Shown here piece by piece: positions 48,870-55,774 of a stretch of DNA of 64,000 nucleotides. Positions within the stretch are counted from its first letter, which is position 1. Every line of letters begins with the position of its first letter. The stretch comes from a phage. The position numbers and the translations under genes are program-made. The stretch is from the sequence record PX246731.1; one strand, written 5' to 3'. The notes below the pieces were generated by a model that saw only the letters and a program-made list of their open reading frames with translations, did not search any database and was not told the DNA's origin.

Positions 48870-51140
48870 TTATAGGTTCATACCAAGAGCCGATGCTGGG
48901 TCTTGGCTAGGGTCATAATACTGGGAACTAAGTGAATAAGTCGGGTCTTGCTGTGCAGCTAAGTCACGTTCCTGTAAAGAGTTCCCGTTAGTCAAAGCGT
49001 TATATCCGACAGCAGCAGATATGTTGGGGGTAGTTTCACCTTCTTTAGTAGGTGTTGTCAACGCCTTAGTTATTTGAAGGTTCTGGTTTCCTTGCGATTG
49101 TGCTTTTTGTTTTTCCATATCACGAGCATGTTTAGTACCAGATTCCTGTTCCAGATAATCCAGGTCTTTAAGGTCACCACTAGAAATAGCTTCTTTAGCT
49201 TTAGCATTATTGAGTGCAATTTTACTTTTCAACTCTTCATTCTCAAGCTGTGCTTTCTGAATTGCTAGTTGCTTAAGCTGCTCTTCCATTGGGTCTGGTT
49301 GTGGTTTCCAGGTACGTAATTCATGAGCAAGGTCTGGCATACGTTTAAGTTCTGCAATCTTAGCTACGAGAGATAACGTAATAGTCTGGTCAACCGTATT
49401 ACCTAACGTTTGAACCATGAAGCTCAAGTCCTGAGATTTCTGGTTATCAATTTCAGCAGTATTAATATCAACCTCAATATCGAAGTTACCTTTAAGGTCT
49501 TCACGATTAATTTCTACATACTGCTCATTAGTAATACGTACTACTTCTTTCTCAGATAAGAACACAGCATTCATTGCACAAATCTTAGTACCAATGTCTG
49601 CCATACCCTTAGCTAACCGACGAAGGATTGCCATCTCACGTTTGGACGCTGCATCGAGTGCACCACGAATACCAGCAGCCACATCCCCGTAAGCTGCACC
49701 AGTTACACCACCAGAGAATGCTTTAACACCAGTTAGTGCTTCTGCTTCCTGGTTCTGCATCTGAGTCATTACTATTGCCGACTGAGGTAACTCAGGGAAC
49801 TTATGCTCCATAATGGCCTGACTAGGATTACCCTGCATTGGGTTGTATTCATAGTCTTGCCCGTCATCATATCGACGTCGGTTCAGGGTATCTAACATCC
49901 CTTTAGGATAACCACGTTGCCCGTTTGCACTTCGGCCTAACAGGTCAATCATCCCACGCATGGTTGCACCAAGAATTGCTTGGTTATCCCCCAACAATTC
50001 AGCATCAGCTTCACCATAGAGTTCACGTTTACGAGGCATATAGGGAACAACTACCAAGGGCAACTTACCATCCGGGAATGGGTTCTTCTCCATACGAATA
50101 AGAGTAGAGCCAATCCAGGTAGCGACAATTGGTTCCAGTGAACCATCATCGTTGATGTCATAGAATCCCCAGTATTCATAAGCGACTACTTTCTTACGAA
50201 GTGCATCCTTAAACTGGAAGTCACCAGGAGTTTTACTTTCATGGTCTGGGTCAGTCATAGGACTGGAACTTTCCCAGTCAATCTTATCCAGGTTATGGTA
50301 ACGGTCTTTGTTCTTCATAAGGTCTGCTTTGCACGTCTCAAATGAGATAACTGCATAAAGAGCCTTATCCAAATCACCATTACAGCTTGGGTCAATAACT
50401 ACGTTATTTGGGTTAAGCATTTCAACAGTAGGTCTGTTAACCAGTGCTTTCTCTACTTCTACTTCAGTAACACCAGTCTGAATTGCATAGGTAGCTTCTC
50501 CAGTTTCATTGAAGTAGTTAACAGCTTCCTTGATATCTTCCGGCATTGTTTCATCATACTCACGGGGATTCTCTGCCTGAAGCTGTAGAGCCTGCTGAAG
50601 AATATCTGCTTGTTCCTGGTTCTCAATTGGATACAACTGGAAGACTGGAGTTTCTGTTTTAATCTTAACAGTCTTACGTTCCCAACCGATACGAGCAATA
50701 CCAGTACCATCATCTACGACACTGTGTACGTAATCATCCACCAATTTTACTTTATTAAGCTGGGTACGGAATTGGTAGTTAAGAACTAGCTCATTCTGAC
50801 GTGCAGCTAACTCATCTTCAAAAGTTACAGGAGTTACCTTAAAGAGTTTATTGGATGAGAGGAATGGTTCAGACAATGGTGCATAACGCCATTCTGCCTG
50901 ACGGCGAACCAGTCTAGGTTGGACTTGTGAACGACCTTTAACCTTTGGGGGTTTAGCCTTACCCTTAACTTCCATCAGGTCATTCCACTCACGAATCTGT
51001 GCCATGATTGCATCGTGAGCAGGTTTAGCTGATTCCAGATCACCTTTCAGTAATTGGATACTTGGTTCCTTCTTCCAGTCCGTTAACTTCTCTGATTGAG
51101 CCGGGTCTGGTAAAGGCTTAAAAGTGTCTTGGTGTTCCAT
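48870..51140 (-). CDS. portal protein (N4 gp59-like)
   Basis: 756 aa, similar in size to the N4 portal; position upstream of scaffold and capsid genes. Confidence 0.55.
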
Positions 51141-51142
51141 AG

Positions 51143-51649
51143 TTATTCCTGTTCAAAAAGTTTACGGTCAGCCTGAATCTGCTTACCCAACTCAATTAGT
51201 TGGCTGTCACGGAGTCTAACAGTTGCCCGGAGTTCTTCAACCAAACGTCTGCCTTCTTCAAGACTGTTGTCGAGTCTGGCTGCATGGCTTGCAAGACTTC
51301 TGCACTCAAAGGTTCCGGCTTCGGCTTGACGTTTATATACCGATGCCCGTCTTTCAGACTGTTGCATCCGGCTGTCATAATCACTGCTAACGCGAGCAAG
51401 CTCGCTTGCGTAATTACTCTCAGCCGTCTGCAACCGGGAAGTGAGTAACCCGACTTCATAACTATGGTTTCTTTGGAGAGCATTGTATTTGTCCTGTAAT
51501 TTTTGCAGTGCCTTACGGTCTTCAATCTTTTGGTCATCCCACTTCTTTTGAACAGTAGACTGCCCATTGGAATTACCCCAAAAGTAAATGGTGGCCCCTA
51601 GGACCACCACCAGAAGATAAGGCCAACCTTTAGAGATTAGCATCTTCAT
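51143..51649 (-). CDS. i-spanin (Rz-like)
   Basis: N-terminal TM ([21 protein letters not shown]) followed by coiled-coil sequence; directly downstream of the endolysin gene; contains an embedded lipoprotein ORF in another frame. Start placed at an internal Met (ORF track 51670). Confidence 0.6.
51196..51459 (-). CDS. o-spanin (Rz1-like lipoprotein) embedded within the Rz reading frame region
   Basis: Alternate-frame ORF entirely inside Rz. Signal peptide ends in lipobox-like MTAGC; the mature part is short and Pro-rich ([18 protein letters not shown]). Start at the internal Met is inferred. Confidence 0.55.
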   Translation of the reverse strand: MKSGYSLPGCRRLRVITQASLLALAVIMTAGCNSLKDGHRYINVKPKPEPLSAEVLQAMQPDSTTVLKKADVWLKNSGQLLDSVTAN

Positions 51650-52265
51650 TACATGCCTCCAGTGGCACATTGCCTATTCGGTTAGCTACCCAACCATACG
51701 TAAAGTCTGGCATGTTTAATGAGGTGTAGTGGTTCAGTTGTTTGGCATCAAGTAACTTAATCATTACCTGACATGCTGCAACTTTGCCTCGTTTTTTCTG
51801 TAATGCTTTATATGCATTAACAGTACTTGTACCGACTTTACCATCAACCTGTATTTTAGGGTAGTCTTTGCCATCACGGGACATTTCATTGAGAGATTGC
51901 TGTAACCACTTAGCCGGACGGGTTACACCCGTATTAACACCAGCATCTACCAGCTTATGTGTTACAGCAGGAGATATATCAGCGAAGGCTACGAAGTTAG
52001 GCTTAAGTACGTAGTCATCAATGTATATCTCAGCAGCCATCTCTTTAGATAAACCTTTCATAGAACCATCCCAACCATACTCAGTAGCCAGAACTTCTTT
52101 ATGTGTCTTAGCTACAGCTTGGGTAATTCCGTGGTTAGTTTCCCCACCTGGGTCACGAAGATTGTTTACGTAACCCCCTTCCATATAGAACACTGCCCCC
52201 AGGATAGCAGCGATAACTCCTCCCACTGCACCACCTTTCGCAGCAAGTTTCTGTTTAGCTTTCAT
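51630..52265 (-). CDS. endolysin, GH108-type N-acetylmuramidase-like
   Basis: EGGYVNNLRDPGGETNHGIT matches the GH108 lysozyme signature (EGGYVNDP.D.GG.T..GIT); C-terminal region is consistent with a peptidoglycan-binding domain. Confidence 0.7.
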   Translation of the reverse strand: MKAKQKLAAKGGAVGGVIAAILGAVFYMEGGYVNNLRDPGGETNHGITQAVAKTHKEVLATEYGWDGSMKGLSKEMAAEIYIDDYVLKPNFVAFADISPAVTHKLVDAGVNTGVTRPAKWLQQSLNEMSRDGKDYPKIQVDGKVGTSTVNAYKALQKKRGKVAACQVMIKLLDAKQLNHYTSLNMPDFTYGWVANRIGNVPLEACNEDANL

Positions 52266-52515
52266 GTGAATCTTCCTTTGGTCGGAATCGTATCAATCTA
52301 CCAACGATGTTTAAGGCAAACAGTGCGATTGCAATATTGGAACCATGGGGAATATCTTCCAGGATGTGACGGGGTAATCCTGTCAACATTGGTTGTATAA
52401 TATCTACAGCAGAAAACAGAATTAAACCAAACGTACTAATCTGAATGGATGACCACTTCCAGCATCTTTTCCAGTTAGGTACTAACTCTACCTTTCTTTT
52501 TAACCTGCGAACCAT
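52255..52515 (-). CDS. holin-like small membrane protein
   Basis: About 86 aa from an internal Met, with two hydrophobic segments (ISTFGLILFSAVDII; IAIALFALNIVGRLI), immediately upstream of the endolysin. Confidence 0.45.
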   Translation of the reverse strand: MVRRLKRKVELVPNWKRCWKWSSIQISTFGLILFSAVDIIQPMLTGLPRHILEDIPHGSNIAIALFALNIVGRLIRFRPKEDSHES

Positions 52516-52829
52516 GCGAATATCTCCCGTCTTGCAGCAGCCAATACACCAATAATTGCACCTGCCCCAGCCCACACCCACTTACCGAAAATCCCAGCAC
52601 CAACGACTTTATGCTTAATGGTAATGAACTCTTCAATAGTAGGTTCGTTCTTAGCTAAGCTATCCTCCACGTTTTTCAGTCTATTGCCTATGTCATTGAT
52701 TGAATCCCGTAGTTCTACCAAAGTTTCCTCCAGTTTCTCACGGTCCTGTCTTTCCCTTGTCTGGTTCTCAAACAGAGTCTTCAATCGTTCCTCCAGTCTG
52801 ACTAGAAGCAGTTCACCCGATTCATTCAT
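52500..52829 (-). CDS. coiled-coil protein with C-terminal transmembrane helix (lysis-cassette associated)
   Basis: Charged helical N-terminus and C-terminal TM (GAGIFGKWVWAGAGAIIGVLAAA); overlaps the holin-like gene start. Confidence 0.4.
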   Translation of the reverse strand: MNESGELLLVRLEERLKTLFENQTRERQDREKLEETLVELRDSINDIGNRLKNVEDSLAKNEPTIEEFITIKHKVVGAGIFGKWVWAGAGAIIGVLAAARREIFAWFAG

Positions 52830-53186
52830 AATATTACCGTAGTTGTGTAGTTAGAATCCCCAATGGGGTCATATCATAAGATGCCTCTTAGATAATACTT
52901 AGTATGATGATGTACATCCAGACATAGTGTCTGCCCTAGAAATTATTGTAAGAAGTGCCGGTACAGCAAGAGAACGGAGAACACAAACAAGGCGAACCAA
53001 TGGAATCACAGTAGTAGGTTCAGACGCTAGTATTAAAGTACAGGGTACGGACATATCTAATAGAGATAATATATTAGCTGCATACACACTTGGTTCAACA
53101 GAACCTTTCATGGTAGAAGGTATTCAGTTAGGGTAATGCAAACAGTAACTCTATATAAAAAGTAATATTAATAAGTTAAAAACTAA

Positions 53187-53209
53187 CCCCGCCGAAGCGG
53201 GGTTTTTAT
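53187..53209. terminator. Terminator hairpin downstream of the tailspike gene
   Basis: Stem ccccgc(53187-92)/gcgggg(53197-53202) with cgaa loop, followed by tttttattt on the plus strand; adjacent to the tailspike stop (53210). Confidence 0.55.
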
Positions 53210-55774
53210 TTACATTGCTGATATGATGAAGCAAAGAAGCTGAGAGTATTCTATCCCCCAGCGATTGCCTGCTGGTTTTGCTGCGGAAAGAATTTTACCG
53301 GTCTTTTCATCAATGACTTCTGGAACATCGTCCCACTCCTCATAAGACAGGAAGTGATATAATTTATGATCAAGTCCGTTACGATTCAGTATCTCAGCAA
53401 CCTCTTGAGCCATTACACCGAAATGCCATTTAGCACCATCACCGTCTCTTTCAACTTCGTCATTGCGCTTGTATGCTCTGATTGATAACTTTATTTCAGC
53501 AGCCGCCTTCTTCTCTGCATCATAAAGCAATCTCTGCTGCTGTTTTTCTCTGATGTCTGATGTGTTAATCGTGCCGTTAACAGCGTAAATCTGTGCCCAC
53601 CTAAGCGAGGCCGATCCATTTGATTTGCTGTTATCCACCATCGGAGCAATTATGCCTTTGACGCTGACGTTACCTGACGCGCCAAACCACGTCATCACAG
53701 GGGAATTGTCACCGTTGAACTTGATGCTCCCATTACTCGCTGAGAAATCCAGCCCCTTCGTGACACCATCCATAGTTATCCATCTGAGGCCATCTTTTGT
53801 ATAAAAGTAATAGCCTCCTGGCGATGCTTCACTCGCACCTTCACGGAGCACGATTGCGTCATTCCCATTCGAGAACTGAACTCGGGTATTCGTCTCACGC
53901 CAGTTCTTCAGGATAAATGAACCATCAGTGAAGTCCGTCTTTATCTGTCGGTTGTCCAGAAAAGCATCACGCGGAGTGAACCCGGTGGTATCCGTAGACG
54001 CCTGAATATCTGATGCAAACAGGCGTAGGTTCCCTGTGTACCCCTGAGTTTCCGCGAGACTGTAGGCCACCATTATCCCGTTCTCGAACTCGGAAGATAC
54101 GATCTTCGTATCTCGACAATCCCCGAAAAGTGTATTCCCTTTATCAAAGGTCGTTTGCGCCTTGAACTTGTCGAAGCGAAGGTTACGCATCGGATAGCCA
54201 TCGATTTCAAGAGCAAACGCTACTGGCAAGCCCAACGAATCAGATGATTGTCCGGAAGAATGCCCAAAGCTGGTAGCAACCGTATTCTCGAACACAGTAC
54301 CGGAGAAGTTATTGCCAATGTTAGGGAAGCGAATGACGCCCAGGGACGCAGGCAATGACGGCGTAATACCAGTAAGCGTAATGTTCGTCCCATCACTCGT
54401 TGACCCGGTAAATGTATACAGGGCTGCGCTACCTGAAATCCTAAAGGAGTTGGTCGCGGTCAAACGGAGTGACGGTCTCTGTTTGAATGTAATGGTACTT
54501 GAGGTGTTACTCACCACATCTATTTGTGGGCTATTTCGAATTAGTAAACCACGAATACCCTGAGTATAGAAACGATTGAACCTGGTTCTTTCTGGGTTCC
54601 CTTTCATCGTCAGAGAGCCGTCGTTTTCAGTCAACAGCGTACCAGCAACGCGCCAGTACCCGCAGACCTGAACGTTCTCGATAACAGCCTCAGAGCTATC
54701 GTAGACGTGAAGACCGATATCCCAGTTATCACCCAGTGACGACGAACTAAAGTCGTTGTATCCATCAATGCCGTTGTTACTAAGCATGATGCGCAGGTTT
54801 TTTAGTTGCGATGTGTGAGTAGCCGTCACCGCCACACTGAACGATTTTAACGTTGCGGGAGTCGTTCCTACCGCGTCCTCATTCGTGAAAGACGTGAACT
54901 TGCAGTCAACGCCATTGACAGACTTAAGAGGCCGCTCGTTAGAGATATTTCCAAACGTTTTATCCTTCACGCCGGTCCCGGTGAACACCAGATGTGTGCC
55001 TTTGGACCAGCTTTTTAACAACCGGTCAGGGGCTGGGCGGTATGTGTCCCAGTAGTCGATACCGCTACCCTCAAGCGTTACCCCAGACGGAACAGCTATG
55101 GTCTTAGAAAGAATACAGCGGCCAGCGGGTATGCGTAATTTAGAACGACCTGAGTTAATTGCTGCGATCAGCGCATCTGAGTCATCTGTCTCACCGTCAA
55201 CTTTAACGCCCCAGCCCCGGACATCCCCTTCGTCGCGCCAGCGCGACATCTGAATGTCCGGAAACTTCTCTGCACCATCTGGGTCCGTTAACTGTGATCG
55301 CAGCACACCATCGCCAACACTAATCCACTTCCCTAAACCAATCCCACCAGCAGTTTCTGGAGTTGAGCCAGCAGTTACTGTTTTAGGGAATTCGCCATCC
55401 CAGCGATACTTACCTGTTGTATTGGTAAGCAATTCATTTTTAACATTAAGTGTAGCACCGGAATCAAACGACCCAGGCAATGTAACGTACTCTTCACGGG
55501 ATACGGCTAATTCCCCAAGGTCTACGGAACCTGCTGAATGTACAAGTACTGCCTGTTCACTAAGGCTTACGGCAGTGGTTCCTACTGGAAGTACGGGTAA
55601 TGAGTAAGCACGTTGGGTAATTTTATCGTAAATGACTTTGTATCCACCTAAGTCTACACCTACAGCAAAGTAGACTACCTCGTTCTGCTTAACACCAAAC
55701 TTACGGGCAATGGCTTGTTTGTTGGTAAGAATACCAGTGGAGCCTTTACCACCTTGTGAGAACATTCCGTTCAT
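53210..55774 (-). CDS. tailspike protein with C-terminal intramolecular chaperone (peptidase S74-like) domain
   Basis: Ser/Thr/Gly/Asn-rich repetitive central region typical of beta-helix tailspikes. C-terminal SDIREKQQQRLLYDAEKKAAAEIKLSIRAYKRNDE...WHFGVMAQEVAEIL matches the autoproteolytic chaperone domain of endosialidases and tail fibres. Confidence 0.65.
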   Translation of the reverse strand: MNGMFSQGGKGSTGILTNKQAIARKFGVKQNEVVYFAVGVDLGGYKVIYDKITQRAYSLPVLPVGTTAVSLSEQAVLVHSAGSVDLGELAVSREEYVTLPGSFDSGATLNVKNELLTNTTGKYRWDGEFPKTVTAGSTPETAGGIGLGKWISVGDGVLRSQLTDPDGAEKFPDIQMSRWRDEGDVRGWGVKVDGETDDSDALIAAINSGRSKLRIPAGRCILSKTIAVPSGVTLEGSGIDYWDTYRPAPDRLLKSWSKGTHLVFTGTGVKDKTFGNISNERPLKSVNGVDCKFTSFTNEDAVGTTPATLKSFSVAVTATHTSQLKNLRIMLSNNGIDGYNDFSSSSLGDNWDIGLHVYDSSEAVIENVQVCGYWRVAGTLLTENDGSLTMKGNPERTRFNRFYTQGIRGLLIRNSPQIDVVSNTSSTITFKQRPSLRLTATNSFRISGSAALYTFTGSTSDGTNITLTGITPSLPASLGVIRFPNIGNNFSGTVFENTVATSFGHSSGQSSDSLGLPVAFALEIDGYPMRNLRFDKFKAQTTFDKGNTLFGDCRDTKIVSSEFENGIMVAYSLAETQGYTGNLRLFASDIQASTDTTGFTPRDAFLDNRQIKTDFTDGSFILKNWRETNTRVQFSNGNDAIVLREGASEASPGGYYFYTKDGLRWITMDGVTKGLDFSASNGSIKFNGDNSPVMTWFGASGNVSVKGIIAPMVDNSKSNGSASLRWAQIYAVNGTINTSDIREKQQQRLLYDAEKKAAAEIKLSIRAYKRNDEVERDGDGAKWHFGVMAQEVAEILNRNGLDHKLYHFLSYEEWDDVPEVIDEKTGKILSAAKPAGNRWGIEYSQLLCFIISAM

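Follow-up and report, generated by a model that had tools for sequence, protein, structure and literature searches.

A lysis cassette of a Gamaleyavirus, with an o-spanin gene embedded in the i-spanin gene and a probable gene-for-gene counterpart in phage N4

Between a tail-fiber gene on one side and the portal gene on the other, in the late gene block of the 64,000-nucleotide stretch of phage DNA analyzed here (the window; record PX246731.1), lie five overlapping minus-strand genes (52829-51143) that raise two questions: which of their products would trigger lysis, and whether a reading frame contained entirely within another gene is itself a gene. The window derives from a Gamaleyavirus, an N4-like Escherichia coli podophage resembling G7C and St11Ph5, with 95-96% nucleotide identity to deposited genomes over the whole cassette. 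The five predicted proteins are 55-67% identical to gp63, gp62, gp61, gp60 and gp60a of N4, and sequence comparison supports, with a probability of roughly 0.9, the reading of the region as a multigene lysis cassette whose genes are orthologous one by one to N4 gp63-gp62-gp61-gp60/gp60a. Functional results for N4 come from a preprint (Awuah et al., bioRxiv 10.1101/2025.11.12.688109), and all activities given below for the window proteins, signal-anchor-release (SAR) behavior included, are those that the N4 experiments would predict.

Read along the minus strand, the cassette begins with the gp63 homolog (52500..52829, 109 aa), followed by the gp62 homolog, a protein with two predicted transmembrane (TM) segments and a DUF7940 domain (52255..52515, 86 aa), an endolysin (51630..52265, 211 aa), an Rz-like i-spanin homologous to gp60 (51143..51649, 168 aa) and an Rz1-like o-spanin homologous to gp60a, which extends from 51196 to either 51483 or 51459 (95 or 87 aa). 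All genes named in the initial annotation, which had described the cassette as complete, were recovered at their minus-strand coordinates. Successive gene junctions overlap by 16, 11 and 20 nt, compatible with the translational coupling proposed there, and a gap of 2 nt separates the cassette from the portal gene.

A GC-rich hairpin flanked by T-runs on both sides (53185..53204), resembling a bidirectional terminator (fold energies -15.6 and -14.4 kcal/mol; z-scores -2.9 and -3.3), occurs directly after the tail-fiber stop codon and delimits, on its upstream side, the spacer in front of the cassette. Within this 380-nt spacer no promoter-like site was found on the cassette strand, and a sigma-70 promoter scan of positions 50900-53400 recovered three sites against 4.5 expected, none of them on that strand. 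Late promoters of N4 depend on the N4 SSB and are poor matches to the consensus. Another terminator-like hairpin, located in the TM codons of the i-spanin gene (51611-51587), was dropped as a regulatory element (z = -1.75; 12 of 200 shuffled sequences folded equally well).

The first protein of the cassette is 67% identical to N4 gp63 and 100% identical to gp63 of St11Ph5, and matches phrog_5211 (E 4.5e-50). Its N-terminal portion is predicted to be helical and cytoplasmic and to be followed by one TM helix at the C-terminus (residues 80-98, KD 1.59), and the ATG of its gene is preceded by a weak Shine-Dalgarno sequence. In databases, proteins of this type often carry the erroneous label "tail length tape-measure protein". 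Over the last 50 residues 43 are the same as in N4 and seven positions differ, the TM helix and the conserved "Receiver" segment (PTIEEFITIKHK) being about 86% identical between both phages. Also, residues T64 and T70 align with T65 and T71 of N4 gp63, mutation of which results in rapid lysis (bioRxiv 10.1101/2025.11.12.688109). A dual-start motif was considered and rejected as a conserved feature: the codon matching the alternative start Met17 of N4 gp63 is TTG (Leu) in the window and TTG, TTC, TTT or CTG in relatives, and the GGAGGA that precedes it simply encodes Glu-Glu.

The two-TM protein is 61% identical to N4 gp62, matches Pfam DUF7940 (52.2 bits, cutoff 27) and phrog_1356 (E 7e-30), and its hydropathy peaks twice, at residues 26-44 and 59-77. 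GGGAG occurs 8 nt 5' of its ATG (52515), and a longer in-frame form of 108 aa is possible from a GTG at 52581, the corresponding start in N4 being ATG.

The endolysin contains Glyco_hydro_108 (PF05838; 68.2 bits, cutoff 21.2) and PG_binding_3 (PF09374; 34.4 bits, cutoff 24.6) domains and shares 67% identity with N4 gp61, with the EGGY motif aligned and retained. The initial annotation had correctly recognized the GH108 domain, and had overlooked the N-terminal SAR domain: a Gly/Ala-rich, weakly hydrophobic helix at about residues 7-28 (LAAKGGAVGGVIAAILGAVFYM; 50% G/A/S/T, KD 1.79), preceded by K2, K4, K6 and K10. N4 gp61 has been shown to be a SAR endolysin, and the substitution G12E in its SAR domain causes rapid lysis (bioRxiv 10.1101/2025.11.12.688109); the equivalent residue in the window endolysin, G15, is likewise Gly. 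By analogy with gp61, the window endolysin is predicted to be a GH108 N-acetylmuramidase of the SAR type, which would be tethered to the membrane and released upon its depolarization.

In N4, the pinholin that times lysis is gp63, which on its own kills cells and complements an S21 pinholin defect but not S105, and gp62 is a non-essential lysis regulator with holin activity that appears only late and can be triggered by CCCP; the preprint leaves the role of gp62 incompletely resolved. Plasmid-driven lysis is unaltered by deletion of gp62, and mutations conferring rapid lysis were located in gp63 and gp61, never in gp62 (bioRxiv 10.1101/2025.11.12.688109). Homology with gp63 thus suggests the coiled-coil/TM protein as the likely lysis trigger of the window phage, a role that the initial annotation had not given it, having described the two-TM protein as holin-like instead. 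The reverse assignment, in which the DUF7940 protein would be the actual holin and the protein with coiled coil and C-terminal TM helix an antiholin or accessory regulator, agrees with the label "holin" borne by phrog_1356 and by gp62 homologs in many GenBank records, with the name "putative antiholin" given to the gp63 homolog of phage Piffle, and with the late holin activity of gp62. It is nevertheless unlikely in view of the killing and S21 complementation obtained with gp63 alone, the dispensability of gp62, and the conservation of the TM helix and Receiver segment in the window protein. With the gp63 homolog as the probable trigger, the SAR domain of the endolysin argues for a pinholin/SAR-endolysin system. 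A canonical lambda S/R-type system, combining a large-hole holin with a soluble endolysin and involving neither a pinholin nor a SAR domain, could be proposed inasmuch as the mode of export cannot be read from the GH108 and PG_binding_3 domains by themselves, but it is hardly credible for an endolysin whose Lys-flanked hydrophobic helix aligns with the SAR domain of gp61, given also the effect of G12E and the failure of gp63 to complement S105 in the N4 work.

The gp63 homolog and the DUF7940 protein might, with a rather low probability, provide Gamaleyaviruses too with a superinfection-responsive lysis inhibition in the manner of N4, in which a signal acting on the pinholin would delay lysis; the sole basis for this suggestion is the conservation of the segment in which the N4 rapid-lysis mutations cluster. 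The initial annotation had mentioned the delayed lysis of N4 together with the embedded spanins; the N4 experiments link this delay to pinholin and SAR endolysin and not to the spanins (bioRxiv 10.1101/2025.11.12.688109).

The i-spanin matches phrog_6197 ("Rz-like spanin", E 1.6e-77) over its full length, is 55% identical to N4 gp60 and has homologs in 159 phage records (tblastn). Its ATG is preceded by GGAGG at 6 nt. The sole hydrophobic peak (residues 3-21, KD 1.61) predicts an N-terminal TM helix and type II topology, followed by a long helical periplasmic domain with a single Cys (C116). The mature o-spanin has no periplasmic Cys, the pair therefore containing the minimum of at least one expected for a homotypic disulfide. 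C116 is absent from the phages JWAlpha, C121 and Meara, and is therefore not universal in the family.

As initially proposed, the o-spanin frame (51483/51459-51196) lies out of frame, in the +1 frame, wholly within the i-spanin gene (51649-51143), occupying 0.33-0.90 of its length and ending 53 nt upstream of its stop codon. The lipobox reads TAG|C, its Cys being encoded at 51366-51364, and the mature lipoprotein is 56 aa long; Thr at -3 is less canonical than the L-x-G/A-C pattern, and residue +2 is Asn and not Asp, as expected for sorting to the outer membrane. The lipobox-like signal reported in the initial annotation is thus present, but the description of the mature part as Pro-rich was overstated, four of its 56 residues (7%) being Pro, essentially in one KPKPEP motif. 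There is ambiguity as to the start codon. AGGA occurs 8 nt before ATG 51483, a start that implies an unusually long signal peptide of 39 aa; ATG 51459 has a poor Shine-Dalgarno sequence, and the resulting 87-aa product follows a PROSITE PS51257-like lipoprotein rule, with Cys at position 32 and K/R among the first seven residues. The same doubt was noted by the curators of Kongari et al., with a good LipoP match for the downstream start, for the near-identical gene of ECBP1 (PMC6139136). A second possible lipobox in the signal peptide (...SLPG|C), with Pro at -2 and lacking a hydrophobic core upstream, was rejected.

The occurrence of the nested frame was analyzed in 22 Schitoviridae loci, and every one of them retains the ORF together with the lipobox Cys and a mature length of 54-59 aa. 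Its retention extends to phages infecting Pseudomonas, Stenotrophomonas, Erwinia and Achromobacter, with i-spanin identities of only 39-47%, and the motif ...MQP.ST..LKKAD.W..NS.QLLDSV is conserved at i-spanin identities as low as 40%. In N4, KP8 and Axy13, the overlap of the spanin genes is 72-82% identical in both frames, compared to 39-43% in the N-terminal i-spanin region outside the overlap. Also, third-position diversity in the i-spanin frame is threefold lower in the overlap (0.047) than in its flanks (0.150 and 0.151; Fisher p = 0.003).

These comparisons indicate that the nested +1 ORF is a real gene and that both frames are under purifying selection. Were it a chance open frame, disruption of the outer membrane would fall to the i-spanin alone or to some other protein. 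The amino acid composition of the i-spanin does leave the +1 frame fairly open: when codons were resampled 20,000 times with the i-spanin protein held fixed, the longest open stretch averaged 68 codons. However, a stretch of at least 133 codons arose in 1.8% of these synonymous recodings and a lipoprotein-like ORF in only 0.5%. The nested ORF has no significant match in Pfam, NCBIfam or PHROGs, a result that is no evidence against the gene because these collections hold no curated model for it. Taken with the retention of the ORF, its invariant Cys and its motif in 22 of 22 loci, the reduced wobble diversity, and the complementation of lambda spanin mutants by an N4 gp60/gp60a construct, a chance origin is extremely improbable.

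Taking the nested ORF as the o-spanin gene, lysis by the window phage may be envisaged as follows. The SAR endolysin would be exported by Sec and held inactive, tethered in the inner membrane by its Gly/Ala-rich N-terminal helix, as the gp63 homolog accumulates. Triggering of the latter as a pinholin would depolarize the membrane and release the endolysin synchronously, at a time presumably modulated by the two-TM DUF7940 protein. After degradation of the murein, a complex of the i-spanin, in the inner membrane with type II topology, and the o-spanin, an outer-membrane lipoprotein whose translation would begin inside the i-spanin gene in its +1 frame, would fuse both membranes.

The layout of the cassette is already known, orthologs having been catalogued by 2018 at the latest and dissected experimentally in N4. 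The embedded architecture, initially regarded as notable for the N4 family, is that of gp60/gp60a of N4 itself, and Kongari et al. 2018 (PMC6139136) classified the spanins of N4, G7C, EC1-UPM and ECBP1 within an "N4" family of embedded ("emb") type. Those of EC1-UPM and ECBP1 are near-identical to the window pair. Both spanin genes are annotated in the GenBank records of St11Ph5 (gp60.2 and gp60.1) and G7C, and the o-spanin also in ShWW44. The value of these observations as a discovery is accordingly small, and their practical use concerns annotation: the embedded o-spanin is still unannotated in many deposited relatives, and the two-TM protein is labeled "holin", whereas the N4 data indicate another protein as the lysis trigger.

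Among Gamaleyavirus genomes (St11Ph5, G7C, EC1-UPM, ECBP1 and Bp4) the cassette differs by point substitutions only, with 94-99% identity to the window in the i-spanin and 93-98% in the mature o-spanin. Upstream of the cassette, the window lacks about 420 nt that in Bp4 and UE-S5a belong to a gene on the opposite strand. In the N4 cassette the five genes recur in identical order, likewise between tail genes and the portal gene, and its gp60/gp60a are functional embedded spanins that fully complement lambda Rz/Rz1 amber mutants (bioRxiv 10.1101/2025.11.12.688109). N4 and the window share the SAR-type N-terminus of the endolysin and the conserved TM/Receiver segment of gp63. Both o-spanins are embedded in the +1 frame and have a mature length of 56 aa, with 59% identity over the full length and 77% over the mature part, but their signal peptides and lipoboxes differ (...AVIMTAG|C in the window, ...TSTIVG|C in N4).

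More distant systems resemble the cassette in arrangement or in proposed logic. In lambda, Rz1 is likewise encoded wholly inside Rz in the +1 frame, adjoining the endolysin gene, and Rz is a type II i-spanin; functional equivalence has been demonstrated by the complementation obtained with the N4 orthologs. No sequence homology to lambda Rz/Rz1 is detectable in the window, a DUF2514 match (17 bits) remaining below threshold, and mature Rz1, with 40 aa, 10 Pro and a periplasmic Cys, differs from the window o-spanin, with its 56 aa, four Pro, predicted C-terminal helix and no such Cys. The proteins of phage 21 are similarly without sequence relationship: R21 is T4-lysozyme-like in contrast to the GH108 endolysin of the window, and S21 has two TM helices, whereas gp63-type proteins combine a single C-terminal TM helix with a long cytoplasmic helical domain. 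The logic proposed for S21/R21 and for the window cassette is the same, namely that of a tethered endolysin freed by depolarization through small holes.

Five tightly packed genes occupy the minus strand from 52829 to 51143, in the order and at the coordinates proposed by the initial annotation, with successive overlaps of 16, 11 and 20 nt. The first (52829-52500) encodes a 109-aa homologue of N4 gp63 with a helical, charged N-terminal part and a single C-terminal hydrophobic helix (residues 80-98), and falls in phrog_5211, of unknown function (E 4.5e-50). The second (52515-52255; 86 aa, or 108 aa from an in-frame GTG at 52581) encodes a protein with two hydrophobic helices that matches Pfam DUF7940 (52.2 bits, cutoff 27) and also phrog_1356, "holin". 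The third is the endolysin gene (52265-51630, 211 aa), with Glyco_hydro_108 (68.2 bits) and PG_binding_3 (34.4 bits) domains. The fourth (51649-51143, 168 aa) encodes an i-spanin with an N-terminal hydrophobic helix, assigned to phrog_6197, "Rz-like spanin" (E 1.6e-77), and its stop codon lies 2 nt before the portal gene ATG at 51140. Within it, in the +1 frame of the same strand, runs an ORF that can start at ATG 51483 or ATG 51459, ends at 51196 and matches nothing in Pfam, PHROGs or NCBIfam. A sigma-70 promoter scan of 50900-53400 revealed no excess of sites and none on the cassette strand. A hairpin within the i-spanin transmembrane codons was discarded as not significant (z = -1.75).

Over 1.8 kb the region shares 95-96% identity with genomes of the genus Gamaleyavirus (Schitoviridae, Enquatrovirinae), including St11Ph5, ShWW44, ECBP1, Bp4, EC1-UPM and pSb-1. 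In St11Ph5, gp63 is labelled hypothetical, gp62 a putative holin and gp61 an N-acetylmuramidase, while gp60.2 and the gp60.1 nested in it are both termed "putative Rz/RzI spanin protein"; ShWW44 annotates the pair likewise. Since both records carry the two spanins, the embedded o-spanin is already annotated in near-identical genomes. The lysis cassette put forward by the initial annotation is real, complete and correctly located, and it is the orthologue of a known, catalogued and experimentally characterised system.

Phage N4 carries all five genes in this order, flanked by tail genes on one side and the portal gene on the other. The window homologues are 67% (gp63), 61% (gp62), 67% (gp61), 55% (gp60) and 59% (gp60a; 77% over the mature part) identical to those of N4. 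According to a preprint from the Ramsey laboratory, the cloned N4 gp60-63 cluster causes rapid lysis of E. coli; gp63, named pinholin, is lethal alone and complements an S21 pinholin defect but not S105; gp62, named lysis regulator, is dispensable, with a holin activity that appears only late and can be triggered by CCCP; gp61 behaves as a SAR endolysin, in which the N-terminal helix change G12E brings on rapid lysis; and gp60 with the embedded gp60a, a lipoprotein of 56 residues when mature, fully complements lambda Rz/Rz1 amber mutants (10.1101/2025.11.12.688109). Rapid-lysis mutations in N4 gp63 cluster in the "Receiver" segment adjoining the transmembrane helix (10.1101/2025.11.12.688109). 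Across this segment and the helix the window homologue is identical to N4 at 43 of 50 positions, and it has equivalents of T65 and T71. The alternative Met17 start of N4 gp63 is not conserved, the codon being TTG in the window and TTC, TTT or CTG elsewhere. The endolysin N-terminal helix, LAAKGGAVGGVIAAILGAVFYM, is of the same kind as that of N4 gp61 (50% G/A/S/T, Lys-flanked), and both the EGGY motif and the Gly equivalent to G12 are kept; this apparent SAR character had been missed by the initial annotation.

The sequence analysis establishes the gene anatomy, the homologies, the targeting signals and selection on both frames; from the N4 experiments we infer the activities of the cassette, for which a pinholin/SAR-endolysin/two-component-spanin pathway is the best-supported model. 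After export, the SAR helix would hold the endolysin in the inner membrane in an inactive state; triggering by the gp63 homologue would depolarise the membrane and release the enzyme, with the DUF7940 protein modulating the timing; and once the murein is degraded, the i-spanin/o-spanin complex would fuse the two membranes. The initial annotation had given the "holin-like" role to the two-TM protein, and N4 gp62 does show some holin activity; nevertheless, the N4 gp63 data point to the coiled-coil protein with the C-terminal helix as the likely trigger, and a two-TM trigger has a low probability.

Homologues of the gp63-like protein in Bp4, PD38, UE-M6, KP8 and others are commonly labelled "tail length tape-measure protein" or "tail needle protein". 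This label is at odds with the N4 pinholin data, the 109-aa size and the single transmembrane helix, and is probably a propagated misannotation. The cytoplasmic N-terminal part of the protein is mosaic among Gamaleyaviruses: several relatives (loci L006-L011) with spanins 93-96% identical to those of the window reach only 70-78% identity in this protein, whereas St11Ph5 matches the window at 100%.

The 380-nt spacer upstream (52830-53209) holds a 69-aa ORF (52927-53136, plus strand) that matches, at 83% identity, residues about 120-183 of 208 in an opposite-strand hypothetical protein. The corresponding gene is intact in Bp4 (orf14) and UE-S5a (013), between the tail spike gene and the gp63 homologue; about 420 nt of it are missing from the window, and the ORF is therefore probably a deletion remnant. 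Directly after the stop (53210) of the 854-aa tail-fibre/tailspike ORF (53210-55774, minus strand) lies a GC-rich hairpin (53185-53204) whose loop is UUCG and which is flanked on either side by T-runs; it resembles an intrinsic terminator that works in both directions, and as such would separate this gene from the lysis cassette. The tail-fibre C-terminus (...SDIREKQQ...GIEYSQLLCFIISAM) resembles, by eye, an endosialidase-type intramolecular chaperone, and St11Ph5 carries a different host-recognition module.

Four lines of evidence establish that the embedded ORF is a gene, as initially proposed. Its 87-aa form matches a lipoprotein pattern like PROSITE PS51257: basic residues close to the N-terminus are followed by a core free of charges and by T-A-G-C, with the Cys at position 32 and predicted cleavage before |CNS; the +2 residue is Asn, whereas Asp would be an inner-membrane retention signal. 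When synonymous codons were resampled 20,000 times with the i-spanin protein fixed, a +1 open stretch of 133 codons, the observed length, or more arose in 1.8% of recodings and a lipoprotein-like ORF in 0.5%. The ORF is also kept in all 22 loci compared (the window, 11 Gamaleyavirus genomes or contigs, Moo19, N4, KP8, Axy13 and a near-identical viral contig, JWAlpha, Fifi450, C121, Piffle and Meara), each with the lipobox Cys, a mature part of 54-59 aa and the motif ...NVKP..EPL.....L.AMQP.ST..LKKAD.W..NS.QLLDSV, even where i-spanin identity falls to 39-47%. Lastly, the overlap DNA is conserved in both frames: against N4, KP8 and Axy13, identity is 72-81% for the i-spanin overlap segment and 77-82% for the mature o-spanin, versus 39-43% for the non-overlapped N-terminal part of the i-spanin. 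The third codon positions of the i-spanin are second positions of the o-spanin; their diversity (pi) among 13 close relatives is 0.150 before the overlap, 0.047 within the mature o-spanin overlap and 0.151 after it (variable sites 29/55 before versus 14/57 within; Fisher p = 0.003).

The two spanins have a single periplasmic Cys between them, C116 of the i-spanin (about 51304-51302). JWAlpha, C121 and Meara lack its equivalent; theirs would be Cys-less pairs, a class flagged as unexplained by Kongari et al. (PMC6139136); from this absence, a disulfide-linked dimer may not be essential across the N4-type spanin family.

The embedded layout, initially regarded as notable for the N4 family, is what this family, with N4 itself, is already known to have. 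Supplementary tables in Kongari et al. 2018 list N4, EC1-UPM, ECBP1, G7C, PhAPEC5 and PhAPEC7 spanins as "emb" (embedded), the N4, EC1-UPM and ECBP1 entries within an "N4" family, with 31 (EC1-UPM) or 39 (ECBP1) residues before |CNS and a mature length of 56 aa (PMC6139136). Those curators recorded a dilemma between an upstream ATG with a good SD and a poor LipoP score and a downstream ATG with the reverse (PMC6139136), and the window o-spanin presents the same one. The mature part had been described as Pro-rich, which overstates its 4 Pro in 56 residues as compared with 10 in 40 for lambda Rz1. Embedded systems account for 182 of 528 two-component spanins, and in ~70% of them the o-spanin starts at 0.4-0.5 L and ends at 0.9-1 L of the i-spanin (PMC6139136); that of the window ends typically, at 0.90 L, and starts slightly upstream of the range, at 0.33-0.37 L.
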